Positions 5,102 through 16,715 of a stretch of DNA of 17,717 nucleotides are shown here, in pieces. Position 1 is the first letter of the stretch; the number at the start of each line of letters is the position of its first letter. The notes under the pieces were generated by a model that saw only the letters and a list, made by a program, of their open reading frames with translations, had not been told where the DNA came from and ran no database searches. The translations under genes and the position numbers were made by a program. The stretch comes from Rikenellaceae bacterium (GTDB lineage Bacteria; Bacteroidota; Bacteroidia; Bacteroidales; Rikenellaceae). The DNA lies in NCBI GenBank assembly GCA_044433645.1, contig JAWXTK010000027.1, forward strand, positions 1 to 17,717, written 5' to 3'.

Positions 5102-6388
5102 ATGAGATATTTGTTAATTATATTTTCTTTGTTGCTGCTCTCGTGTGAGAGCGAAGAAATAGTTGAGTTTGTAACCAACGGCGAAAAGTATGAGGACACT
5201 GAGCTAGATTTGAGCTATGCCCCTGAGTGTTACCCAGTCTTTTCGTGGGATAAAGTGCCTTTGAATGGTCACTTTAGCAAGGATACTGATAACTTTACAG
5301 ACGAGGAGGCTGAGTTTATCGCCAACACTTACAGCTTTGTGACTTTAGAAAAAAATCAAGGTAACCCAGATGTGGGGGCTGATATTGAGACTCCTAAGGA
5401 TGCTGCCTTGATTAAACAATATAATTCTGATTGTAAGGTGCTATTGTATTGGAACACTCGTAATGATTATGGTGATATGTGGTCTACGGGTTCAAATTTA
5501 ATTTATAACCCTACGACCAAGGATACAGCCTCGGCTAAGAATTTTGAGTGGATACTCTATGACGGAGTTACCTATTATAATGATGGAACGGATTATCGCC
5601 ATAGGTTTGATCCTAGAAACGAAGAAATGAGCCTGTGGTGGACTTCTGTTGCTGTGGATATGATAGCTGAGCATAGCTCGCTTGACGGAATTTTTGCAGA
5701 CGGTGTTATGAGCTATGTTGAAAGTAGCTCTACTGTTATGACGCGCCTAGATACTTATTATGGCGCAGGGCAGGGTGATGCTTACCGTTATGAAGGGCTA
5801 GATATGTTAGGTAATGTTACCTCTAGTTATAATAATCAAAATCTTGTAATTGCTAATTGTATTCGTGCTCAGCGTAGTGCCTTGCCTGATAGCGAGGGTA
5901 GAGACGGATTCTTAGGTCTTGATTATTGTCACGGAGGTATGTTAGAGCATTTTGCTTGCCCAGGTACAGCCTCTTATACTAAAGATTATATACTCCAAGA
6001 TATAGAGTATATAGAAACAGCCTCATCCATAGGCAAAATCACTGTGGTGAAGGGCTGGCCTAGATATAAATGGACAGATGATATATTAGACACAATGAGC
6101 GATGCTGAAAAAGAGGCTATGCTTAGAGAAGATATAGTTTTCCCATTGGCTTGCTACTTACTAGGGGCAGGTGAGTACAGTTACTTTGCTTACTCGTGGG
6201 GCTATCGTATGGAGCACGGTTGGATGTATGACTATGAAGAATTTAATAAACCCCTGGGTGCTCCTCAGGGTGCTAAGGTAAAGGTTAAACCTGGCGATAG
6301 TAGTAGTTATGAGTACACTCGCGAGTTTGAACATGCTCACGTTTGGGTTGATATTGAGAGCTTCACAGCCGAAATAACTTGGTTGTAA
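5102..6388 (+). CDS. Putative TIM-barrel glycoside-hydrolase-like lipoprotein (GH114/GHL-type), paralog A
   Basis: Signal + lipobox with strong acidic export-signal-like tail (LLSCESEEIVEF). Shares blocks with the next ORF: FSWDKV, LEKNQG, DG(I/V)F(A/I)D, EDIVFPLAC(Y/F)L(L/V)GAGE..YF.YSWGY, NKPLG, YTREFE.A.VWVD.ES. The DG-hydrophobic-F-x-D block is typical of the GH114/GHL clan. Exact family not determinable by eye. Confidence 0.55.
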   Translation: MRYLLIIFSLLLLSCESEEIVEFVTNGEKYEDTELDLSYAPECYPVFSWDKVPLNGHFSKDTDNFTDEEAEFIANTYSFVTLEKNQGNPDVGADIETPKDAALIKQYNSDCKVLLYWNTRNDYGDMWSTGSNLIYNPTTKDTASAKNFEWILYDGVTYYNDGTDYRHRFDPRNEEMSLWWTSVAVDMIAEHSSLDGIFADGVMSYVESSSTVMTRLDTYYGAGQGDAYRYEGLDMLGNVTSSYNNQNLVIANCIRAQRSALPDSEGRDGFLGLDYCHGGMLEHFACPGTASYTKDYILQDIEYIETASSIGKITVVKGWPRYKWTDDILDTMSDAEKEAMLREDIVFPLACYLLGAGEYSYFAYSWGYRMEHGWMYDYEEFNKPLGAPQGAKVKVKPGDSSSYEYTREFEHAHVWVDIESFTAEITWL

Positions 6389-6411: not shown

Positions 6412-7578
6412 ATGAGATTAAATTTAATTGCTTTTTTCACACTCATTTTATGTAGTGTAAATCTTTTTGCTCAAAAGCCAACAGAGGCCTATCCCGATTT
6501 TTCGTGGGATAAAGTGTCGGTTTGCATACACCTGGGCAAGAGTACAGATGATTTTACGGCTAAGGAAACGAAATTTCTTTCGAGATTTCCCATAGTGTGC
6601 TTAGAAAAAAATCAAGGCCTTAATAAACACGGAGCCATGGAACTTGGCACTATTGCAGCTGGTAAAGCTATTAAAGAGTATAACCCAGATACAAAAATCT
6701 TATTTTACTTTAATAGCTGTATAGATTTTGGCGAAATGTATATGACAGGTTATATGCTCAGCGATGATGCTAACCCAGATTGGGCTGTTAAAAGCCTTAA
6801 TGGCGAGTATGTGTTAATTAGAAACAGAACCAACAGACGTATGTATGATTATTCAAACGATAATATGCGCGAATGGTGGGTTTCGACAGCGAGAAAATGG
6901 ACTAGAAATAAATATATAGACGGTGTGTTTATAGATGCAATTCCAAAGTATGCAGCATCAACACCAACGCGTAAAAAACAATGGGGCGAGGAGAAATTTA
7001 ATGCTATTTACGCAGGTCTTCACTCAGCTTTAAGTGAGCTAAAAACCGAGCTTAATGGCGAAAAACTTATGATAGGTAATTTTTTAAGAGGAAACGAGAA
7101 AATTATGCCTGATATGGGAACTCACTTCCATGACTACACCGACGGAGGTATGATAGAACATTTGGGTATTTTAACCTGTTCGCCAAAAGAGCATATCGCA
7201 AAGGATATAGAGCTAATTCAGGATGCAGCCAAAAGAAAGAAAATTGTAGTTGTAAAAGCATGGCCTACTTTTAACTTTATGGAGATGGGAGATATGAAAA
7301 ACAAATCTCAGAAGGTAAAAGAGACAAAAGCAAGGGAGGATATAGTCTTTCCGTTGGCGTGTTTTTTAGTTGGAGCAGGTGAGTGGGCTTATTTCTGCTA
7401 TTCGTGGGGCTACGAACACACCCAAGGGGGTTTGGTTGATTACGCTGAGTATAATAAACCTTTGGGTAAACCCTTAGGCGATGCCGTTAAAACAGACTGG
7501 GTTTACACGCGCGAATTTGAGAGAGCAAGCGTATGGGTAGACTTAGAAAGTAGACAAGCAAAAATTAATTGGAGATAA
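6412..7578 (+). CDS. Putative TIM-barrel glycoside-hydrolase-like protein, paralog B (SPI-type signal, not a lipoprotein)
   Basis: About 35-40% identical to 5102..6388 over conserved blocks (AYPDFSWDKV, CLEKNQG, IDGVFIDA, EDIVFPLACFLVGAGEWAYFCYSWGY, YNKPLGKPLG, YTREFERASVWVDLES). N-terminus MRLNLIAFFTLILCSVNLFAQK looks like a type I signal peptide. Confidence 0.55.
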   Translation: MRLNLIAFFTLILCSVNLFAQKPTEAYPDFSWDKVSVCIHLGKSTDDFTAKETKFLSRFPIVCLEKNQGLNKHGAMELGTIAAGKAIKEYNPDTKILFYFNSCIDFGEMYMTGYMLSDDANPDWAVKSLNGEYVLIRNRTNRRMYDYSNDNMREWWVSTARKWTRNKYIDGVFIDAIPKYAASTPTRKKQWGEEKFNAIYAGLHSALSELKTELNGEKLMIGNFLRGNEKIMPDMGTHFHDYTDGGMIEHLGILTCSPKEHIAKDIELIQDAAKRKKIVVVKAWPTFNFMEMGDMKNKSQKVKETKAREDIVFPLACFLVGAGEWAYFCYSWGYEHTQGGLVDYAEYNKPLGKPLGDAVKTDWVYTREFERASVWVDLESRQAKINWR

Positions 7579-7733: not shown

Positions 7734-8168
7734 ATGAAAAAATATATAGTTTATTTAATATTATCGGCACTGATTTTTGCTGGGTGTCAAGAAGATTTAG
7801 AGTTTGAGGCAATAGTTGTGCCTGAGGCCTTGCTTTTAGTGTCACTTCCTGGGGGAGATAACTCATCACGTGTGAGCTTTGCTGATAGTAATGGTGAAAT
7901 ATCGCTTACGTGGAAAGGTGGCGATACTTTTGGGGTGTATGATAGCGCTGGTGAAAGAGTTTCAGATTATAAATATACGGCAAATAGTTCGGGTGGTGCA
8001 GCTTTGTTTGAAGCTAGTGATAACACTAATTTGTTGGTTAATGGTAGCAGTTACACAGCCGTTTACCCTGCCGTAGATAATGCTACAAACCTTGATGAGC
8101 ACAGAGAAATATTAGTAGGCAGAGTCTTAGAGCAAACACAAGGGGCTATAATTCTATGGACCATTTAA
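7734..8168 (+). CDS. N-terminal fragment (signal peptide + lipobox + first domain) of a surface lipoprotein; 5' part of a frameshifted gene
   Basis: MKKYIVYLILSALIFAGCQEDLEFE is a classic lipoprotein signal with an acidic surface-export-like tail. The ORF ends at TAA 8166..8168 only 13 nt after the next ORF's ATG, and the frame-2 ORF is open from 8099. Confidence 0.5.
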   Translation: MKKYIVYLILSALIFAGCQEDLEFEAIVVPEALLLVSLPGGDNSSRVSFADSNGEISLTWKGGDTFGVYDSAGERVSDYKYTANSSGGAALFEASDNTNLLVNGSSYTAVYPAVDNATNLDEHREILVGRVLEQTQGAIILWTI

Positions 8169-9061
8169 ACGATGCGCTATGTATGGAGGCTAATTTTACT
8201 TATTCTTCTAGCTCTAGCACAAAAGTTAGTTTTGCACATAGTTTTGCCACTATGCGCATGACTTTTTCTTTGGAGGATAATCAGATTCCTGCAAAATTAG
8301 AATTTACAGATGGTGATTACGCTACATACACTATTAATATGAGTGATGTTAGCTCGTCGGATAGTTATACTGTGTATTATGTGATTTTCCCACACGAGGG
8401 TGGTGAGAGAAATTTATCGTATGGCATCACAACTATACACGACGAATTATATTATTATAAGTTAGTTTGCTCTACAACTTACTATGAGGGTCAAAATTAT
8501 ATAGCTACTATACCAGGACTTACTTTGTTTTATATCCCAGATGGATATACCCCTATTTACTTTGACGTGGACTTATACAATATTAGAGATGATCTTTCGG
8601 GGCAATATATTTTGATGAATGATATTACTTTGTCTGGTTATGATAATTGGACACCGATAGGCACTAGTTCTAATTATTTCTCTGGTGTTTTCTCTGGTGG
8701 AGGTTTTACTATCTCGGGCCTTAATATTAATTCTGAGGATGATTACCAAGGACTATTTGGCTACGTGAGTGGCGCAACTATTAAAAATGTTATTGTCAAA
8801 GAGCCTTCTATTCAAGTAGGTCAATACTCAGGCGCAGTTGTCGGATATTTTTCTGATTACTCTGTTACATCTTGTTATTATTTAGAGATAACAGGCACTT
8901 CTTATACTAATGAGTATGGCACAGCATCTAGTGAAGCGACTATGAAAGCTTCTAGTTTTGTAACTACACTTAACTCGGCTGCTGGCTCAACTTACTTTAA
9001 ACAAGATACAAACAATTATAACGACGGCTATCCTATACTTGTTGGGTTAGATTACAATTAA
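8156..9061 (+). CDS. C-terminal portion of the same surface protein: GLUG-like (beta-helix) repeat region; most likely fused to 7734..8168 in the intact gene
   Basis: No signal peptide of its own, although the content is clearly extracytoplasmic. GLUG-like repeats: NYFSGVFSGGGFTISGLNINS, YQGLFGYVSGATIKNVIVKE, QYSGAVVGYFSD. A +1 G in the G4 tract at 8142..8145 would join both ORFs into one ~445-aa lipoprotein. Confidence 0.5.
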   Translation: MDHLNDALCMEANFTYSSSSSTKVSFAHSFATMRMTFSLEDNQIPAKLEFTDGDYATYTINMSDVSSSDSYTVYYVIFPHEGGERNLSYGITTIHDELYYYKLVCSTTYYEGQNYIATIPGLTLFYIPDGYTPIYFDVDLYNIRDDLSGQYILMNDITLSGYDNWTPIGTSSNYFSGVFSGGGFTISGLNINSEDDYQGLFGYVSGATIKNVIVKEPSIQVGQYSGAVVGYFSDYSVTSCYYLEITGTSYTNEYGTASSEATMKASSFVTTLNSAAGSTYFKQDTNNYNDGYPILVGLDYN

Positions 9062-9106: not shown

Positions 9107-10291
9107 ATGGCATTATTTGATAAATCGACTCAGGCCTATGACGGTCAACAGTCAAAAGGAACTAACAAGGGAATGGTGGGCTCTACTATATTCTGGCGCC
9201 CTGAATCTAATGAGGCAATGGTTTATAAATATGCTCACGATGATATTCGTAACGGAGCTATTGTTGTAACTCACCAATCTCAAAGAGCGTATTTGTTTCT
9301 TAACGGAGCACTTGCTCACAGTATTCCTCCCTCAGGGGGCCAATACAAACTTGAAACTGCAAACATCCCCTTGTTTGCTAAGTGGCTTAATGCTGCTACC
9401 GGAGGTACAACTCACAGCCCTGCTGAGATTTGGTTTGTAAATGTAGAAACTGAGCGAGCTGCTCTGTGGGGTTTGGGCGATTTGCCAATTATGGACCACT
9501 CTATGGGTGTAGAATTTATTATCGGAGCTAGAGGTGGTTACAATATTAAAATCGTAGACGGAGCATTGCTATTGATGAAATTAGTGGGTGCACTTGATGA
9601 TTTCTCAACTAATGAATTTCTTAGTTATTTCAAACAAAAAATTCGCTCTATCGTAGCTCAGGCTATTTCAGATGTGGTTGAGACTGAGAAATTGTCTATG
9701 CTTTCACTTCAAAGAAACAGAAAAACGCTTGAGATAAAGGTTGAGGAATTTATTAATCGCGAGCTAGAGGCCTATGGTGTTTGTATTAAAAACTTTGCAG
9801 TTGAGAATTTTAATATCCCAGAAGAATATCGCGAGGTTCTTAAAGAGCAAACTAAAGGCCTAGCAGAAAGAAAACGCCTTGATCAACTTGGTGTGGCTTA
9901 TGCTCAGGAGCGCCACTTTGATATTATGGACAATGCTGCCAAAAACGAAGGTGGCACAGTAGGCTCACTAATGGGAGCAGGCATGGGACTAACCATGGGC
10001 GCTGGCGTAGGTCAGGCTATGGGTAACAGCCTTAACCAAGGCTTTAGTCAGGCATCTTCGCCCACTGCACCTCCTCCGATTCCTCAGGCTAAGGAATACT
10101 ATCTAGCTATTAACGGACAGCAAGCAGGGCCTATGGGCGTGGCAGGGATTCAAGAAATGATTAATCAAGCTCAGGCAAATTCTCAAACACTTTATTGGTG
10201 TCAAGGAATGGGTGACTGGGAGCCAATCTCTAGTTCAACAGAATTAACTGGAGCCCTTAAATTCTTACCACCAGCTATCCCTACACTTTAA
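9107..10291 (+). CDS. SPFH/Band-7 family protein (Band_7_1, PF13421-like) with C-terminal DUF4339 (GYF-like) domain
   Basis: N-terminus MALFDK...IFWRPESNEAMVYKYAHDDIRNGAIVVTHQSQRAYLFLNGALA matches the conserved start of Band_7_1 proteins. A central SPFH-like region is followed by a Gly/Met-rich segment and a Pro-rich linker (PTAPPPIPQA). C-terminal EYYLAINGQQAGPMGVAGIQEMINQAQANSQTLYWCQGMGDWEPIS is the DUF4339 signature. Confidence 0.75.
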   Translation: MALFDKSTQAYDGQQSKGTNKGMVGSTIFWRPESNEAMVYKYAHDDIRNGAIVVTHQSQRAYLFLNGALAHSIPPSGGQYKLETANIPLFAKWLNAATGGTTHSPAEIWFVNVETERAALWGLGDLPIMDHSMGVEFIIGARGGYNIKIVDGALLLMKLVGALDDFSTNEFLSYFKQKIRSIVAQAISDVVETEKLSMLSLQRNRKTLEIKVEEFINRELEAYGVCIKNFAVENFNIPEEYREVLKEQTKGLAERKRLDQLGVAYAQERHFDIMDNAAKNEGGTVGSLMGAGMGLTMGAGVGQAMGNSLNQGFSQASSPTAPPPIPQAKEYYLAINGQQAGPMGVAGIQEMINQAQANSQTLYWCQGMGDWEPISSSTELTGALKFLPPAIPTL

Positions 10292-10318
10292 TATTCATTA
10301 CTTAAAAAAACTAAAGAT

Positions 10319-11008
10319 ATGAAACTAAAACAATTAAATGTAATAATAACAGTAATCTGTGTAATTGCAACTTTAGGTATAGAATACTTGCTTAGACCAG
10401 AGCAAATCGGTAGTTTGTATAAATTCAATATGGCAGCAATTATCTTGTTAGAAGTGCTGTTTATCAATGCTTTATACCTAACAGCTAAAAAAGAAAACTA
10501 CTCTCCTCAGAGCATAACCGTGGCTGTGCGTGTGCTTAAGTATGGTGTGTTTGCAGCTCTGTGGCTTGTGATTTATGCTGTGGCTCTTCGCAAAAATGTT
10601 GATATTAAGTGGTATTATGTTGTGCATATTGCCCTTCTTGCATGGTTTGCTATATCAGCCTTTGTGCTTAATAGCGCAGGCGCCAAACAAATAGAGGTGA
10701 ACGAGGCTCAGCAGGCTAGAGTAGAGGAAAGAGCAAAAACCACTGCAAAAGTATTTGTTTCTAAAAGCGATATTGAAAGAAACATTACAAAATCATCTCT
10801 GTCGGTTGAGGCTAAACGCGATATAAATTTGCAGGTTAATACTATATACGACAAACTTCGTTTTTCTCCAGCTAACTTAGGTGAGGACGATCTTGCGCAA
10901 AGCTACCTTGAACAAATCAATACTCTATCCTCAGATAACGACTCAAGCGAAGAGGCTATAAAAGAAAAAATCGCCGACCTTATTAGTTATATTAATTCTA
11001 GGAACTAA
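10319..11008 (+). CDS. Integral membrane protein (4 predicted TM helices) with a C-terminal soluble helical domain; unknown function
   Basis: Four hydrophobic ~20-aa segments in residues 8-120, then a charged, coiled-coil-like tail (EVNEAQQARVEERAKTTAK...). Only 27 nt downstream of the SPFH gene on the same strand. Confidence 0.55.
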   Translation: MKLKQLNVIITVICVIATLGIEYLLRPEQIGSLYKFNMAAIILLEVLFINALYLTAKKENYSPQSITVAVRVLKYGVFAALWLVIYAVALRKNVDIKWYYVVHIALLAWFAISAFVLNSAGAKQIEVNEAQQARVEERAKTTAKVFVSKSDIERNITKSSLSVEAKRDINLQVNTIYDKLRFSPANLGEDDLAQSYLEQINTLSSDNDSSEEAIKEKIADLISYINSRN

Positions 11009-11051
11009 TATAACGCAACTCAATTATAATTTAAAAAAAAACTTAAATATT

Positions 11052-11462
11052 ATGTCAAAACAATCAAATTGCCCTAAGTGTGGCGCGAAAATGAATTTTG
11101 ATGAGGCGCAATACATTATGGTTTGCCCTTATTGTGAAGAGGAAATACGCTTAGAGAGACCTGCCACTCCTCCACCTGCTCAGCCTGCGCAAGCAACTCT
11201 TAGCGATGAACAGTTAAGAAGAATATCAGCGCAGATGAGACAAAATCAAGCTCCACCAAGACCTCGTAAAAGCAAATCTACGGCTATTATTCTGTGCTTT
11301 TTCTTAGGTATGTTGGGCATACATCAATTTTATCTTGGCAACACTTGGCGAGGTATAGGCTACCTTGTCTTAACGTGTTCGGTAGTTGGTGCTTGGCTAG
11401 CAGCTATAATTTTATTTATTGATTTTATCGTTCTTTGCTGCACAAGCGAAGATTCATTCTAA
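11052..11462 (+). CDS. Zinc-ribbon + TM2-domain membrane protein
   Basis: N-terminal CPKCG-x17-CPYC zinc ribbon, then a Pro-rich linker (PATPPPAQPAQA), then a C-terminal TM2 domain (PF05154 pattern): KSKSTAIILCFFLGMLGIHQFYLGNTWRGIGYLVLTCSVVGAWLAAIILFIDFIVL. Confidence 0.7.
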   Translation: MSKQSNCPKCGAKMNFDEAQYIMVCPYCEEEIRLERPATPPPAQPAQATLSDEQLRRISAQMRQNQAPPRPRKSKSTAIILCFFLGMLGIHQFYLGNTWRGIGYLVLTCSVVGAWLAAIILFIDFIVLCCTSEDSF

Positions 11463-11489
11463 ATTTAACCTTTTTTATAAATAAAAAAA

Positions 11490-11525
11490 CAGCAAATGAC
11501 ATTCTAGTCATTTGCTGTTTTTGTT
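11490..11525 (+). terminator. Rho-independent terminator for the 9107..11462 transcription unit
   Basis: Perfect 11-bp stem (cagcaaatgac / gtcatttgctg), 6-nt loop attcta, followed by tttttgttttg. Preceded by an A7 run, so it could also act on the opposite strand. Confidence 0.6.
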
Positions 11526-11540: not shown

Positions 11541-11580
11541 ATATCAAAAAAAAAGCTCGCCCTAATTAGGACGAGCAAAT
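11541..11580 (-). terminator. Rho-independent terminator for rplU-rpmA (minus strand)
   Basis: Hairpin agctcgccct-aatt-aggacgagc (one mismatch) at about 11550..11577. On the minus strand it is followed by a T9 run (complement of the A9 at 11541..11549), directly downstream of the rpmA stop. Confidence 0.5.
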
Positions 11581-12351: not shown

Positions 12352-12717
12352 ATGAAAATACTGATAGTTAGCAATGATTTTATAGAGGGTGGCTTTCTTA
12401 GAGAGGCTCTCTACTTTGAGGGCTTGGATGTGTGTGGGGTGTGCCCTTTAGAGCAAGTTGAGCATTACTGCCATGAGCATGAGGTGGGCGTAATAATTAG
12501 TTTTTGTCATCACAGCCTGCTAAACGGGGGTTGGTGCAGTGAATTTTTTGAGCGTTTACAGCTAAAGGCTAGGCCTAAAATATTTTTGCTGAGCTCAATT
12601 TCTGATGAAAATACGGTGATAAGCATGTATAAGGGCAAGGTTAATCAATATTATATGCTACCCATGGATTTAAAGCGCATGGTTAAGAATTTGTCAAATG
12701 AAATTTCTAAAATTTAA
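12352..12717 (+). CDS. Pseudo-receiver (degenerate CheY-like REC) domain protein, Cys/His-rich
   Basis: MKILIVSNDFIEGGFLREAL...VGVIISFCHH...IFLLSSISDE...YYMLPMDLKRM aligns to a CheY-like receiver, but D12 is N, the phospho-acceptor D57 is F (IISF in place of VISD) and K109 is L. There are 5 Cys + 6 His in residues 28-62 (CGVC, HYCHEHE, FCHH, WC). Confidence 0.6.
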   Translation: MKILIVSNDFIEGGFLREALYFEGLDVCGVCPLEQVEHYCHEHEVGVIISFCHHSLLNGGWCSEFFERLQLKARPKIFLLSSISDENTVISMYKGKVNQYYMLPMDLKRMVKNLSNEISKI

Positions 12718-12723
12718 GCTGTT

Positions 12724-13677
12724 ATGGAGTTATTGCTGGGTGTGTTAATAGGCGTGTTTTTGATTATTTTTGTGTGCTATTCTATAAGATTTTTGTGCGT
12801 AAATAGCAATTTTAAGTGGATAAAACGCAGGCGAGAGTTAGCAATTAGCCGTCTGTTGAAATCATTTTATCAGTGGATTTATCAGGGTTATATTCCTCGT
12901 GGGGAGTTCTCTCACATGCTGCATCACAGGTCGCGCTCTTTGGCTATAAAAATCCTAGCGCAACTTCGCGAGGTAACTCATGGGCACATACCTATGCGAC
13001 TGGAAAGATTTGTGGCATGGCGTAAACTTGATAAATATTTGTTGCGTTTAGCTAATCGCAGGCGAGGATTAAAACGTGCGCTTATAGTTAAAACTTTGTT
13101 TCTTTTGCCGCTGCCCAGGTGGAGCGAGAAAAAGGTAATAAGGTTTGAGGATGATAAAAATGCTTATGTGCGTTTGTTTGCGCTTATGTCTCATCTGGAT
13201 TATGATTTTTCTAGAAGTATAGATATTCTGCACGAGTTCAAGGGCGAATATAGAACCTTGGATTATTGTATGTTGGCTAAGTATTTTCATCGTAGGAGCC
13301 TAACCAAAGATTTTCATCTTAGGCTTTTACGCCATGAGGATGAGAGGTTGCAGTTTTTTGCTCTATATATAATTAGAATGAGGAATTTATCTTCCTCAGG
13401 TGGGGATATCCTTAAATATTTGCCAACGGAGAATGATGATTTGGTTTTTGAAATGCTAAAGACTTTGGTTGTAGTGCATTATGATATGAATCACGAGAGA
13501 GTGGTGGCTCTAATGAGAGAGCAAAAAAGCGAAAAGCGCAAGTATTTATATCGCCTAGCAGCAAGCGAGGGCTATTCTCTGGGTGCACTGGAGAGGGTTT
13601 TGATGGTCGAAAAGCACGCTTTTATGGTTGATTATGTGGTGAGTTTGATTCAGGGTGGTAAGTATAAATTGGTTTAA
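12724..13677 (+). CDS. Membrane-anchored (single N-terminal TM) basic alpha-helical-repeat protein; unknown function
   Basis: N-terminal hydrophobic helix LLLGVLIGVFLIIFVCYSI. The remainder is rich in R/K/H with recurring amphipathic helix-like segments (HEAT/ARM-like by eye). Start is 7 nt after the pseudo-receiver stop. Confidence 0.5.
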   Translation: MELLLGVLIGVFLIIFVCYSIRFLCVNSNFKWIKRRRELAISRLLKSFYQWIYQGYIPRGEFSHMLHHRSRSLAIKILAQLREVTHGHIPMRLERFVAWRKLDKYLLRLANRRRGLKRALIVKTLFLLPLPRWSEKKVIRFEDDKNAYVRLFALMSHLDYDFSRSIDILHEFKGEYRTLDYCMLAKYFHRRSLTKDFHLRLLRHEDERLQFFALYIIRMRNLSSSGGDILKYLPTENDDLVFEMLKTLVVVHYDMNHERVVALMREQKSEKRKYLYRLAASEGYSLGALERVLMVEKHAFMVDYVVSLIQGGKYKLV

Positions 13678-13691
13678 ATAATTTATTTGCT

Positions 13692-14819
13692 ATGTTATTA
13701 ATTTGCATTACTGTTGGTTTGCTTGTTTTAGTTTGTTTAAGGATTTTTCTGCTTGCCTGTATTGGGGTGCGCTCTATGGGTGATTCTAGGTTAAATGATG
13801 CTTTGATGGAGTGTCGAAATGCTCGCCTCTCTGATGCTTATAATGAGATTGCTATATCTATTATAGTGGCAGATTTGGAGAGGGAAAGCGATTTGATATC
13901 TTTGCTTAGTCTGGATTTAAATCGTTATGAGGTGGTGCTTTTGTTAGATTTTAATGATAGTGCTCTGGTAGGAAATATCCTTGCGCGCTATAATATGCTA
14001 AAGGTTGATAAAGTACCAACTAGCGAACTTTCGTGTATGTCTGTGCGTGGGGTTTATCGTTCTAGAGAGAGTGTTTACTCGCGTTTGGTTATAGTGGATA
14101 TGAATAAAGGGGGTAATGCTCAAAGATTTAGTTGTGGGGCAAATATTGCTAGATATGAATATGTCATGGCCTTAGAAAAAGGTTGTTTGCTCACCCCAGG
14201 GGCAGTTTGCAGTGTGGTGCGTACTTTGTTAGAGCAAAATACGCAGATAAAATATTGCGCCGTAGGGGGCTTTCGTTTGGGTGAGTTGCCACGCAATATT
14301 TTTAAGATTGTGGATCTAAGTGTAAAGATGCTAATTGTGGGGGCTGGTTTTGCAAAACTTTCGCTTTGGGGCGAGAATGTGAGTGTGGTTTTTGATAGAG
14401 AATATTTGGTGCAGGCAGGTGGCTATGGTATAGACAAACATTTTGATTATGAATTAGTTAAGCGCATAGAAAGAATGAACGAGCGAACCAAGGACGATGC
14501 CAAAGTAATGCTTATGCCCAAGGTGATGCTAAGAGACAGAAATGCTAGTGGATTAGACATTAAGAAGTGTCTGTTTTCATCGGGTTTTGTGTTTGGGATG
14601 CTGCTTGTTTTGATGATGTTTTGCTTGCTTAGCGAGTATCTGAGTTTGGTGGTTTTGACTGTTGTTTTTGTATATATTCTTAGTGTTTGTGTGGCAGCTA
14701 TGAGCGTGTATGCTTGCTCTGGGATGCTTAGGCCAAAGAACTCTCTGGGTGTGATAGTGGCTGTTATATTTTATCCTTTTTTCTTAATTTTTAGATTAAT
14801 TCGCTTGATTAGGTATTAA
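13692..14819 (+). CDS. GT2-fold (family 2 glycosyltransferase-like) membrane protein with N- and C-terminal TM segments and a variant DxD motif
   Basis: N-terminal TM. ISIIVADLE...YEVVLLLDFNDSAL corresponds to the GT2 vsviiP...eiivvDDgStD block. VDMNKGGNAQRFSCGANIARYEYVMALEKGCLLTPGAV corresponds to NlGkaaArNaGlkaAkGeyilflDaDd..ep.al, with DaD replaced by EKG. VFDREYLVQAGGYGIDKHFDYELVKRIER corresponds to fRrealeevGGfde...EDlelslRl. C-terminal ~90 aa form 3-4 TM helices. Confidence 0.5.
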   Translation: MLLICITVGLLVLVCLRIFLLACIGVRSMGDSRLNDALMECRNARLSDAYNEIAISIIVADLERESDLISLLSLDLNRYEVVLLLDFNDSALVGNILARYNMLKVDKVPTSELSCMSVRGVYRSRESVYSRLVIVDMNKGGNAQRFSCGANIARYEYVMALEKGCLLTPGAVCSVVRTLLEQNTQIKYCAVGGFRLGELPRNIFKIVDLSVKMLIVGAGFAKLSLWGENVSVVFDREYLVQAGGYGIDKHFDYELVKRIERMNERTKDDAKVMLMPKVMLRDRNASGLDIKKCLFSSGFVFGMLLVLMMFCLLSEYLSLVVLTVVFVYILSVCVAAMSVYACSGMLRPKNSLGVIVAVIFYPFFLIFRLIRLIRY

Positions 14820-14866: not shown

Positions 14867-15172
14867 ATGTATAAAGTTAATACCTCCTTTGTTGTCGAGG
14901 GTTGTGAGAACAATCGTTGGCTCAATATTATAAACGAAAATTATATACCTTTTCTTAAAGAAAACGGATTTAACCAGGTTTGTCTCTCGCGCGTATTATC
15001 AGCTGAGAACGAGTCTAATTTCACCTATTCTCTACTAGTTGATATAGACAATATTGCAGACTACGAAAAACTTACAGGTGTTATCTTTGATGAATATACA
15101 GCCGTGGCCGAACCCTTGTTTGGTGCACGCGTTGTTTGGTTTACTACTGTAATGAAGGTGCTAAATGAATAA
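14867..15172 (+). CDS. DUF4286-family small protein
   Basis: MYKVNTSFVVEGCENNRWLNIINENYIPFLKENGF...FTYSLL...ADYEKL..VIFDEYTAVAEPLFGARVVWFTTVMKVL fits the ~100-aa Bacteroidota DUF4286 pattern (MiiyNvTv.v...eWl.wm.e.HIP.v..tG.F ... F.T.le.l). Stop overlaps the next gene's start (ATGAATAA). Confidence 0.45.
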   Translation: MYKVNTSFVVEGCENNRWLNIINENYIPFLKENGFNQVCLSRVLSAENESNFTYSLLVDIDNIADYEKLTGVIFDEYTAVAEPLFGARVVWFTTVMKVLNE

Positions 15173-16715
15173 GAAGTTAACATATATTATCCTTAGTTTA
15201 CTTTGTGTGTGCGCTACAAATAATCTTGGCGCAAAAACCACAGCTGTGAAATTCAAAAATAACGAGAAGTGGTGGGGCTTTTATGTCAATGACTCGCCCT
15301 CGCAACCTTTTATGCAGCCTTTTAGCGAAACGACTAATCAGTATAAAGAGGGTGGTGGGTTTACTAAAGCCGTGATGCTGTCTTCTGAGGGACGTTATAT
15401 GTGGTGCGCTGATGAGGCTCAGGTGCGTTTTACGGGTGATTCCCTGGTGGTGAAATCTGCTAGCGAAGTGAAAATTAATAAAGGTGGGCGTAATCTTCGT
15501 GAAGCCTTCTTGGTGTGTTGTCACAAAAATTTTCCTCCTTCAAATAAGCTCCCTTCGAGCGAACTTATAACCTCTATTGTATATGAAACATCCTCGGAGC
15601 TAGGTTTTGAGCAAGACCAACAGTCGCTTCTTGCTTATGCCAAGCGTTTGAAAGAAGAGGGTTACCCTACCGGTGTTATAGTTTTGGGAAATGGCTGGAG
15701 AAACCTTAGTGGTTCGTGCGATTTTAATAAACAGCTTTATCCCGATGCTAAGGCCATGGTGGAGACGCTGCATAAAATGGGATTTAAACTTATGCTAACT
15801 TACACCCCTCTTATTACTCCGGTGGGTGTGGATTACATGAATCTTAGAGATAAAAATCTGTTGCTCAAAAACAAGCGTGGCACAGTGCAAATTGTGCGCA
15901 ATGATGCTGGTTATCAGGCCTGTGTGAATATAGCTTTGTCTGAGGCATCATCTATGTTAAAATCTGAGGTTGATTACCTAAGAGATATGTATAACATAGA
16001 CGGTTTTAGATATGATGCTAGTGCCGTGTTACCTTTTTTGAACAACACGGGGGCTAAGGATGCTTTTATGCGCGAGTGGCTGAGCTTTGGTAAGAGCGAT
16101 AGAGTTAAAGAGTATATGCCTGGGCTTATGGATAAGTTTATGGTACACGTTAATTGCTTTGAGGATAATACGCCTATTAGCTATAAAACGCTTAATGCTA
16201 GGATAAATAATTTGATTTCCTCGGCTTTGTGTGGTTATGGCTACACCCATAGTTTGATATCTAAGAGCGTGGCTGAAGCTGCGTATGAGGATGAACTTTT
16301 AATGGCTTATTACTTGCAACTAGCGGCCTTTATGCCTGTGTGTTCGGTGGATTTTGCGCCTTGGAGAGTCGAGGATGAAAAATTAAGAGAGAGAATTAAA
16401 CAAATGTACACAATAAGAAGTTCAATAAGTGAGTTTTTAAATAAAGCCTTGGACGGACTTGGTGCTAGCTCTGAGCCTATAATTAGGAATATGGAGTATC
16501 AATTCCCACGCCTTGGATACTCTGATTGTATTAATCAATTTATGTTTATTGATAAATACATGGTTGTTTTGCCCGAGCAAAATTCCTCTAAAACTCTAGT
16601 GAGATTCCCTCGTGGAGTGTGGAAATCGGCTAAGGGTGAGATAATTAAAGGCCCTATTGTTAAGAGTATCAGTGCCGAAAAAGGCCAAATACTTTACTTT
16701 GAACTAACAAACTAG
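15165..16715 (+). CDS. Secreted glycoside hydrolase, GH31 / clan GH-D-like TIM barrel
   Basis: Signal peptide MNKKLTYIILSLLCVCATNNLGA. GVIVLGNGWRNLSGSCDFNKQLYPDAKAMVETLHKMGFKLMLTYTPLI resembles the GH31 and GH27/36 block (viDdgW....F.fd...FPdp..mv..Lh..G.k..l...P.i). IDGFRYDAS resembles the nucleophile block (vDGfW.DMnE / DYLK.D). The exact family is uncertain. Confidence 0.5.
   Translation: MNKKLTYIILSLLCVCATNNLGAKTTAVKFKNNEKWWGFYVNDSPSQPFMQPFSETTNQYKEGGGFTKAVMLSSEGRYMWCADEAQVRFTGDSLVVKSASEVKINKGGRNLREAFLVCCHKNFPPSNKLPSSELITSIVYETSSELGFEQDQQSLLAYAKRLKEEGYPTGVIVLGNGWRNLSGSCDFNKQLYPDAKAMVETLHKMGFKLMLTYTPLITPVGVDYMNLRDKNLLLKNKRGTVQIVRNDAGYQACVNIALSEASSMLKSEVDYLRDMYNIDGFRYDASAVLPFLNNTGAKDAFMREWLSFGKSDRVKEYMPGLMDKFMVHVNCFEDNTPISYKTLNARINNLISSALCGYGYTHSLISKSVAEAAYEDELLMAYYLQLAAFMPVCSVDFAPWRVEDEKLRERIKQMYTIRSSISEFLNKALDGLGASSEPIIRNMEYQFPRLGYSDCINQFMFIDKYMVVLPEQNSSKTLVRFPRGVWKSAKGEIIKGPIVKSISAEKGQILYFELTN

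Follow-up and report, generated by a model that had tools for sequence, protein, structure and literature searches.

The contig of a Rikenellaceae metagenome-assembled genome that makes up the whole of our window (17,717 nt) carries, at positions 9107-11462, three co-directional genes encoding an SPFH protein, a protein with four transmembrane (TM) helices (4-TM protein), and a small protein that combines a zinc ribbon with a TM2 membrane domain. SPFH proteins are universal membrane organisers whose bacterial clients are mostly unknown, and the question raised by this locus is whether the three genes form one functional unit and, if so, of which kind. An earlier note on this DNA had proposed a functional link between an SPFH scaffold and a TM2 protein. 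Our analysis indicates that the cassette is a variant of the YdjI/SamI-type SPFH system of Bacillus subtilis, more general than that note supposed, and that cassettes of this kind, of which it is one local version, are widespread in bacteria but largely unstudied. On balance, we favour reading it as an SPFH scaffold of the YdjI/SamI type that docks to the membrane, with a split arrangement of zinc ribbon, proline-rich linker and GYF domain. The elements of the cassette are listed below, with the open reading frames (ORFs), amino acid (aa) positions and, for AlphaFold2 (AF2) models, the predicted local distance difference test (pLDDT) score.

9107-10291, + strand: gene 1, ORF of 394 aa; soluble Band_7_1 SPFH protein with a C-terminal GYF_2 adaptor (Pfam, BLASTP with YdjI, hydropathy, AF2)
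9230-9853, + strand: Band_7_1 SPFH domain of gene 1, aa 42-249 (Pfam PF13421, E 2.1e-28; pLDDT ~80-90)
9950-10024, + strand: Gly/Met/Ala-rich, glycine-zipper-like segment of gene 1, GGTVGSLMGAGMGLTMGAGVGQAMG, aa 282-306, preceded by AAKNEG
10070-10084, + strand: PPPIP motif of gene 1, aa 322-326, directly 5' of GYF_2 (alignment A1)
10097-10246, + strand: GYF_2 domain of gene 1, aa 331-380 (Pfam PF14237, E 1.3e-13)
10268-10282, + strand: PPAIP, a degenerate second copy of the motif at the C-terminus of gene 1, aa 388-392 (sequence)
10319-11008, + strand: gene 2, ORF of 229 aa; TM region (~aa 1-120) and cytoplasmic helical C-terminal domain (~aa 121-229) (hydropathy, AF2)
11052-11462, + strand: gene 3, ORF of 136 aa; N-terminal zinc-ribbon head, proline-rich linker and two-helix TM2 membrane domain (Pfam)
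11070-11135, + strand: zinc-ribbon head of gene 3, CPKCG-x14-CPYC, aa 7-28 (Zn_ribbon_NUD, 27.9 bits, aa 7-31, Pfam)
11157-11195, + strand: proline-rich linker of gene 3, RPATPPPAQPAQA, aa 36-48 (sequence)
aa 67-72 of gene 3, + strand: APPRPR, a second short proline-rich stretch (sequence)
11265-11429, + strand: TM2 domain of gene 3, aa 72-126 (Pfam PF05154, E 7.1e-15)
11485-11522, both strands: perfect hairpin with a 16-bp stem and A and T runs on its flanks, read as a bidirectional intrinsic terminator ending the cassette

The three ORFs, the gaps of 27 nt (genes 1 and 2) and 43 nt (genes 2 and 3), the Pfam domains and the proline-rich stretches, namely PTAPPPIPQA in gene 1 and RPATPPPAQPAQA in gene 3, were all recovered as the earlier note had given them. 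The terminator that it described is indeed a perfect hairpin, although it lies a few bases away from the position proposed for it (11490-11525). This hairpin is followed by a T-rich tract on its 3' side, has a folding energy (dG) of -30 kcal/mol (z = -6.4 against shuffled sequences) and reads as a terminator on the - strand too. Database relatives were obtained for each gene: 12 clusters at 46-100% identity for gene 1, relatives at 54-57% identity for gene 2, and, for gene 3, one at 32% identity with an identical architecture. The three genes are thus not chance ORFs. Since word-indexed protein searches returned just three clusters for gene 2 and four for gene 3, further homologues of these two were sought through synteny and through hidden Markov models (HMMs) built for this analysis.

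The identity of gene 1 is provided by its SPFH domain, which scores 99.8 bits against a Pfam cutoff of 24 for Band_7_1. BLASTP aligns the protein with B. subtilis YdjI at 24% identity across 230 aa (E 2e-20), and YdjI is in turn found by our SPFH HMM at E 1e-50; gene 1 may accordingly be regarded as a homologue of YdjI/SamI. The B. subtilis operon was taken from a metagenome contig (L090; loci are cited by such numbers throughout) that was located with the sequence of a published primer. No hydrophobic helix was detected in gene 1 by hydropathy, and the protein is therefore predicted to be devoid of a TM anchor of its own. Its AF2 model has a pLDDT of 71, with good scores where the chain is folded; in Foldseek it superposes on stomatin, HflK/C, prohibitin, erlin and flotillin subunits (E 4e-9 to 1e-5). 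Downstream of the SPFH domain, the Band_7_1 proteins of L005-L084 display a conserved AAxNEG motif followed by an MGAGMGLGMG-like segment. When scored as at least 60% G/A/M within 25 aa, such a segment is present in 55 of 77 Band_7_1 proteins and with every adaptor type; by eye, YdjI has a comparable G/M-rich segment, which the B. subtilis papers term merely a low-complexity region. The segment of gene 1 is disordered in the AF2 model. More speculatively, it could serve as a recognition site for membrane partners.

In order to place the cassette in a wider context, we surveyed 83 Band_7_1 genes in 81 non-redundant loci, using our own ORF calls and HMMs (the counts are approximate, as discussed below). 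The loci comprise 80 that encode relatives of gene 1, together with further contigs retrieved by exact-protein look-up. Comparison of gene neighbourhoods, which had been set beforehand as the test of the proposed association, revealed conserved synteny: a co-directional triad of SPFH gene, 4-TM gene and zinc-ribbon gene recurs across more than ten phyla, comprising Bacteroidota, Bacillota, Pseudomonadota, 'Deltaproteobacteria', Verrucomicrobiota, Lentisphaerota, Kiritimatiellia, Planctomycetota, Fibrobacterota, Acidobacteriota, Chloroflexota and WOR-3. No description of this triad was found in the literature searched. The C-terminal adaptors of the SPFH proteins vary, with an array of one to five zinc ribbons in 57 genes, GYF_2 in 14, and SHOCT in L033 and L057 (confirmed by Pfam) and L035 (by eye). 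The window itself conforms to the pattern, with a member of the 4-TM family directly downstream of the SPFH gene (27 nt) and a zinc-ribbon membrane protein with two TM helices in the operon. Its specific order of SPFH-GYF_2, 4-TM and zinc ribbon-TM2 recurs in Alistipes (L006, L008) and, with additional genes for zinc-ribbon-headed proteins, in L085-L087; L066 has exactly this order but without GYF_2, its SPFH protein ending in four zinc ribbons.

The 4-TM protein, which the earlier note had treated as a bystander, proved to be the most conserved partner, as it is encoded in the operon of 62 of the 83 SPFH genes. In 54 of 77 cases it lies directly downstream of the SPFH gene, typically with a gap of -4 to +30 nt and often with a 4-nt overlap. 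Family members measure ~230-255 aa, and gene 2 possesses four hydrophobic helices within aa 1-120, as seen both in its hydropathy and in its AF2 model. The family was delineated with an iterative HMM seeded by gene 2 and its two database relatives, which converged on 60 of 1285 ORFs, one per locus and all within the SPFH gene cluster; members were confirmed in five of the six loci for which ORFs were re-called. An HMM built from the 50 non-Bacteroidota members only still matched gene 2 end to end (E 2e-13), so that the homology does not stem from the iteration. We found no relative of gene 2 or its family in Pfam, NCBIfam or the PDB, whether by sequence or by the fold of the low-confidence model: the AF2 model, built from three sequences, has a pLDDT of 65 and matches nothing in the PDB below E 0.7 (Foldseek), while the profile gave chance matches only against PDB sequences. 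NfeD was considered as an identity for gene 2 and rejected, as no NfeD match was obtained in Pfam at E <= 0.1 and the AF2 model is all-helical rather than an OB fold.

The earlier note regarded Band_7_1 proteins as lacking any established function; this is out of date, since YdjI/SamI of B. subtilis has been characterised (PMC8581546; bioRxiv 10.64898/2026.02.06.704340). These studies describe YdjI (SamI) as soluble, and report that membrane foci of YdjI and of PspA depend on YdjG (SamG) together with YdjH (SamH), of which YdjH binds YdjI, PspA and YdjG (PMC8581546; bioRxiv 10.64898/2026.02.06.704340). It could be argued, then, that the window cassette is likewise a PspA/ESCRT-III adaptor whose main task is to recruit a PspA-family protein encoded elsewhere to damaged membrane, with the 4-TM and zinc ribbon-TM2 proteins as sensors or receptors. 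The homology of gene 1 to YdjI speaks for this, as do the requirement of YdjI for PspA foci (PMC8581546) and the repeated linkage of Band-7 and PspA genes in comparative genomics (PMC11237479, PMC10936438). However, a phmmer search returned no PspA homologue within ~6 kb in 84 loci nor in the 17.7-kb window, and no YdjH (TPM-domain) homologue was found in the window or in any locus. We consider such an adaptor role unlikely, and a SamGHI system proper is rejected for the window, which has neither an adjacent pspA nor a YdjH.

The third gene is where the triad shows its greatest freedom. A partner bearing a zinc ribbon lies within three genes of 68 of the 83 SPFH genes and nearly always has TM helices. 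In Bacillota this is a protein of two to three TM helices with a C-terminal ribbon; elsewhere, widely differing bodies follow an N-terminal head (M..CPxCG-x12-16-CxYCG). In many loci the third gene begins with a head so placed and similarly spaced, as does B. subtilis YdjG, the N-terminus of which reads MIISYKCPNCG-x14-CSSCG. Indeed, full-length YdjG homologues constitute the zinc-ribbon partner in L023, L040, L058 and L009. In the first three of these the YdjG homologue adjoins the 4-TM gene, while in L009 it adjoins a short 4-TM ORF that is unmatched by the family HMM.

The TM2 domain of gene 3 is securely assigned (55.4 bits against a cutoff of 27.9 in Pfam), with TM helices near aa 78 and 111. 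TM2 ORFs were encountered in eight loci of about five lineages, alongside all three types of SPFH adaptor: the window, Alistipes L006 and L008, Caulobacter L057, Geobacteraceae L039, Victivallaceae L042 and L049, and Kiritimatiellia L066; the Pfam model confirmed seven of these ORFs plus the window's own. The combination of zinc ribbon and TM2 is also seen in L006, L008, L057, L066 and the metagenomic relatives L085-L088, and in L008, L057, L085 and L088 the head is followed by a proline-rich linker. Across ~1 Mb of loci, every TM2 ORF detected lies inside the SPFH gene cluster and none elsewhere. L005, the closest genome relative (65% identity in the SPFH protein), has no TM2 gene, its cassette encoding instead a soluble zinc-ribbon-headed protein and a zinc-ribbon-headed protein with a single TM helix. 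L085-L088 encode three to four consecutive zinc-ribbon-headed paralogues with differing tails, be it one TM helix, a proline-rich stretch with one TM helix, a proline-rich stretch with TM2, or a soluble domain. Because the tails differ among L005, L085-L088 and the TM2 loci, the zinc-ribbon head is the constant element and the tail exchangeable; TM2 is one option among several tails that can be swapped behind this head. The earlier note was right to link an SPFH scaffold with TM2, but the association is neither specific to GYF_2, since SPFH proteins of the zinc-ribbon and SHOCT types are accompanied by TM2 as well, nor exclusive, as L005 does without TM2. Among the paralogues of L085 (3546-3941) and L088 (763-1164) lies a further 4-TM gene, VanZ-like and of 131-133 aa (weak Pfam VanZ match, E 0.006).

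These observations bear on the possibility that the SPFH and 4-TM proteins alone form the functional unit, gene 3 being an unrelated small membrane gene that is merely co-transcribed. TM2 is found in just 8 of 81 loci and is missing from L005, and the Tannerellaceae loci L001 and L010 have no zinc-ribbon gene downstream, all of which would agree with a hitch-hiking gene. The frequency of the zinc-ribbon partner among SPFH genes, the conservation of its head where the tail is swapped, the recurrence of TM2 in the operon in about five unrelated lineages with no occurrence elsewhere in the ~1 Mb of loci, and the requirement for the zinc-ribbon-headed YdjG in the formation of YdjI foci in B. subtilis (PMC8581546) argue against it, and we regard it as highly doubtful.

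What, then, is the role of the GYF_2 domain (the current name of DUF4339) at the end of gene 1? This region matches the NCBIfam GltJ model over the GYF part of GltJ (E 5e-11), and Foldseek aligns it with the GltJ GYF structure 7z3c at 29% identity. Work on GltJ has shown its bacterial GYF domain to bind a proline-rich sequence at micromolar affinity; in ~44% of bacterial GYF proteins a zinc ribbon lies alongside, with a flexible linker between the two and a membrane module usually next (PMC11135422). The proline-rich stretch of gene 1 was present as the earlier note described, but it is more than the linker it was taken for, being a conserved PPPxP motif that flanks GYF_2. Alignment A1 shows that P322, P323, P324 and P326 are almost invariant across phyla, and that a second PPP[ILF]P usually terminates SPFH proteins of the GYF_2 type. 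PPxP motifs occur in 11 of 13 GYF_2-type SPFH proteins as against none of 57 zinc-ribbon-type proteins, a distribution that supports a link between GYF_2 and proline-rich ligands by correlation only. Since both the flanking PPPIP/PPAIP motifs and the gene 3 linker are present, two candidate ligands for GYF_2 can be named, PPPIP/PPAIP in cis and RPATPPPAQPAQ of gene 3 in trans; as peptides, the candidates are SSPTAPPPIPQAK, KFLPPAIPTL and ERPATPPPAQPAQAT.

GYF_2 and TM2 had also been said to be often fused in single proteins, a premise for which we obtained no support. A GYF_2 profile search matched 27,416 proteins among 1.84e9 representatives, and none of the 150 best carried TM2; nor did TM2 rank in the top 25 of the 41 Pfam families that co-occur with GYF_2 in 110 of these proteins, although such fusions may still exist, because this sample is skewed to proteins with multiple GYF_2 domains. 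The Pfam partners in the 110 proteins included zinc ribbons (16) and CD225 (5), with single cases of RDD, DUF805, DUF4234 and DUF2628. In this sample GYF_2 fuses with zinc ribbons and other small membrane modules instead of TM2. A gut metagenomic clone with neighbouring DUF4339 and TM2 genes has been listed (PMC3861447). In L023, an SPFH protein with a proline-rich tail and one with GYF_2 were considered as a complementary pair, an idea that was rejected as both paralogues carry GYF. In Tannerellaceae, a membrane-anchored protein is encoded directly upstream of the SPFH-GYF_2 gene (L001 7194-7952, L010 2121-3284); its N-terminal domain is weakly protein-kinase-like, and it has a single TM helix. 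That of L001 has a Pro/Tyr-rich stretch, YPYPPNDYPPYPKP, before its TM helix, a possible further GYF ligand, while that of L010 has WG repeats after the helix and no Pro/Tyr-rich stretch.

Starting from what was observed here, namely the domains, the YdjI homology, the conserved synteny and the modular third gene, a model of oligomerisation, binding partners and physiological role may be put forward. Like SPFH proteins in general, the product of gene 1 would oligomerise on the cytoplasmic side of the membrane; since its model superposes on subunits of SPFH assemblies, an oligomeric ring or cage on the inner membrane face may be taken as the default expectation. The 4-TM protein would act as the dedicated membrane anchor, in the position held by YdjH/SamH in B. 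subtilis and by NfeD in classical operons. Proteins of the gene 3 class would be co-receptors or clients whose zinc-ribbon head docks onto the SPFH/4-TM core, in the manner of YdjG/SamG; the tails seen among them are TM2, a single TM anchor, soluble domains (TPR-like or other) and bodies resembling that of YdjG. Closing or regulating the assembly would fall to the C-terminal adaptor (a zinc-ribbon array, SHOCT or PPPxP-GYF_2-PPPxP), and an oligomerisation module is what SHOCT has been proposed to be (PMC3581485). GYF_2 may bind its own flanking PPPxP motifs, thereby linking neighbouring subunits or causing auto-inhibition, or alternatively the proline-rich linker behind the zinc-ribbon head of the TM2 protein. 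By analogy with SamI, the physiological role of the cassette would probably lie in cytoplasmic membrane organisation or surveillance under stress.

Several points weigh against this model of a docked scaffold with a split GYF arrangement. The helical region that follows the SPFH domain is short (~45 aa), so that a closed cage is not assured, and the anchor role of gene 2 is without structural support, as its model is of low confidence. PspA, the sole known client of YdjI, has no match near the cassette or its relatives in the search described above. ORF calling in the loci was crude, which renders the survey counts approximate. As to the GYF_2 ligands, proline-rich linkers also occur beside the zinc ribbon where the SPFH protein has no GYF_2 (L031, L051, L062, L076, L057) and may for that reason be plain spacers. 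An enrichment of such linkers in GYF_2-type over other loci is not demonstrable from these loci, and the GYF_2-type loci L002, L018 and L006 have no zinc-ribbon partner with a proline-rich linker.

A role in conflict with phages may also be envisaged, in which the zinc-ribbon-headed tail-anchored proteins and TM2 proteins are membrane-perturbing effectors of an abortive-infection system that the SPFH/4-TM pair restrains, or triggers upon phage attack. The third position varies strongly and in some loci is multiplied (L085-L088), a pattern typical of effector modules; proteins with a zinc ribbon and TM2 are found in phages (phrog_10292, E 2e-18), and one Vibrio plasmid homologue adjoins genes for TIR and TRAFs-binding-domain proteins. 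Against this, PADLOC-DB 2.0 gave only noise for the three proteins (E 0.0014-0.016, 11-16 bits), no relative of gene 1 was found in 50,697 phage genomes (INPHARED) or in IMG/VR, no mobile-element gene was found near the cassette in the window, and the surroundings are of a stable housekeeping kind (rpmA-rplU here, the spo0B-obg region in nine Paenibacillus species, obgE in Bacteroides finegoldii). A conflict system is, in our view, very improbable. An origin from a phage or mobile element is rejected, as genes 1 and 2 have no match in PHROGs and the PLSDB matches are only to megaplasmids or chromids.

The Vibrio homologue just mentioned (V. coralliilyticus plasmid, L092, 1045-1914) is a distant SPFH-GYF_2 protein with a 352-aa hypothetical gene downstream; the TIR and TRAFs-binding-domain genes lie on the opposite strand and could represent a defence-island context for that branch.

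With regard to the genes around the cassette, rpmA (L27, 11604-11864) and rplU (L21, 11884-12198) on the - strand converge on it and, besides the bidirectional terminator, have a GC-rich terminator hairpin of their own (11555-11576, - strand). An rplU-rpmA-obg neighbourhood recurs in other genomes, which may be a coincidence or an old linkage. In nine Paenibacillus species (L052, L054, L056, L067, L069, L071-L073, L075) obg lies just upstream of the cassette, with rpmA or rplU upstream in several and spo0B confirmed in L054 only; L048 has rplU only. In B. finegoldii (L091) the cassette is convergent with pgeF-obgE. On the other side of the window cassette, two + strand ORFs (7734-8168 and 8156-9061) overlap by 13 nt in different frames and may be one frameshifted gene. 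The former begins with a lipoprotein signal (MKKYIVYLILSALIFAGCQ), and residues 138-257 of the latter match phrog_30905, of unknown function. Tandem paralogues of GHL15 (hypothetical glycosyl hydrolase family 15) are encoded at 5102-6388 and 6412-7578 and a GH31 protein at 15165-16715, and the cassette is therefore located within a carbohydrate-utilisation region. Three successive + strand ORFs (121, 317 and 375 aa) at 12352-14819 have no match in Pfam or PHROG.

What do these findings imply for SPFH proteins at large? YdjI/SamI, the sole member of Band_7_1 to have been studied, has been viewed through PspA, while most of the relatives sampled here have no PspA or YdjH nearby and are encoded with a different set of partners. 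We tentatively raise the possibility that the Band_7_1/4-TM/zinc-ribbon-head cassettes, spread over at least a dozen phyla, constitute a third, unrecognised class of bacterial SPFH operon besides NfeD-SPFH and HflK/C. Such a class would be composed of a soluble SPFH oligomer, a 4-TM anchor and changeable zinc-ribbon-headed, tail-anchored clients, TM2 proteins among them, and its GYF_2 variants would contain a GltJ-like switch between subunits. If so, it would provide the first functional context for bacterial TM2 proteins. The cassette further offers a candidate for a general anchor of soluble SPFH proteins, places bacterial TM2 proteins in a genomic context for the first time, and presents a natural 'split' version of the zinc ribbon-linker-GYF switch with candidate ligands in cis (PPPIP) and in trans (RPATPPPAQPAQ). 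Genetic models are available, because the cassette is present in gut Bacteroidales (Alistipes, Bacteroides, Segatella), Paenibacillus and Clostridia.

How the cassette relates to known systems may be considered from its parts upwards. The TM2 domain of gene 3 is bona fide, lying above the Pfam threshold for the family (PF05154) that includes metazoan TM2D1-3/almondex and the 'NINE protein' of NCBI. We know of no bacterial TM2 protein with a known function, and no link between TM2 and SPFH operons was found in the literature searched. The metazoan TM2D proteins act in Notch signalling (PMC8714088).

The SPFH fold of gene 1 and the helices that follow it are shared with HflK/C-FtsH, stomatin, prohibitin, flotillin and erlin, and an oligomeric scaffold delimiting a patch of membrane would be expected by analogy. 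Unlike the cage-forming complexes, gene 1 has no TM anchor of its own and a much shorter helical wall, no protease or channel client is encoded nearby, and sequence identity is just 9-16%.

In the NfeD-SPFH operons (YbbJ-QmcA, YuaF-FloT, YqeZ-FloA, YqiJ-YqiK), as here, the SPFH gene is tightly paired with that of a small multi-pass membrane protein; these pairs are often translationally coupled, and the membrane protein is thought to be the partner of the SPFH protein. However, classical SPFH proteins have their own N-terminal membrane anchor whereas gene 1 encodes a soluble protein. The 4-TM protein, for its part, does not match NfeD in Pfam and has a helical soluble domain rather than an OB-fold, and a third, zinc-ribbon gene belongs to the cassette.

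Myxococcus GltJ offers a similar set of parts, with a zinc ribbon, a flexible linker, a GYF_2-type domain and a membrane module. GltJ unites them in a single polypeptide, which functions in gliding motility through MglA, MglB and AglZ, while here they are split over the SPFH and TM2 proteins, with no Mgl or Agl genes near the cassette.

The closest comparison remains SamGHI (domain descriptions in PMC11237479 and PMC9239133), of which the cassette appears to share the plan while lacking two defining features, the adjacent pspA and YdjH. The differences extend to gene order, the SPFH gene being first here and last in B. subtilis, to the 4-TM partner, which is unrelated to the TPM-domain protein YdjH (hhalign probability 0.3%), and to the adaptor, which is GYF_2 in the window and a zinc ribbon in YdjI. 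Gene 3 shares with YdjG (two N-terminal zinc ribbons, an NTF2-like domain and a C-terminal TM helix) its head only, its body being TM2. In both systems, nonetheless, a soluble Band_7_1 SPFH protein has a low-complexity, G/M-rich stretch and then a small adaptor at its C-terminus, and is encoded alongside two membrane proteins, one of them headed by an N-terminal zinc ribbon (CPxCG...CxxC; YdjG there, gene 3 here). It seems, therefore, that the window cassette follows the SamGHI plan.

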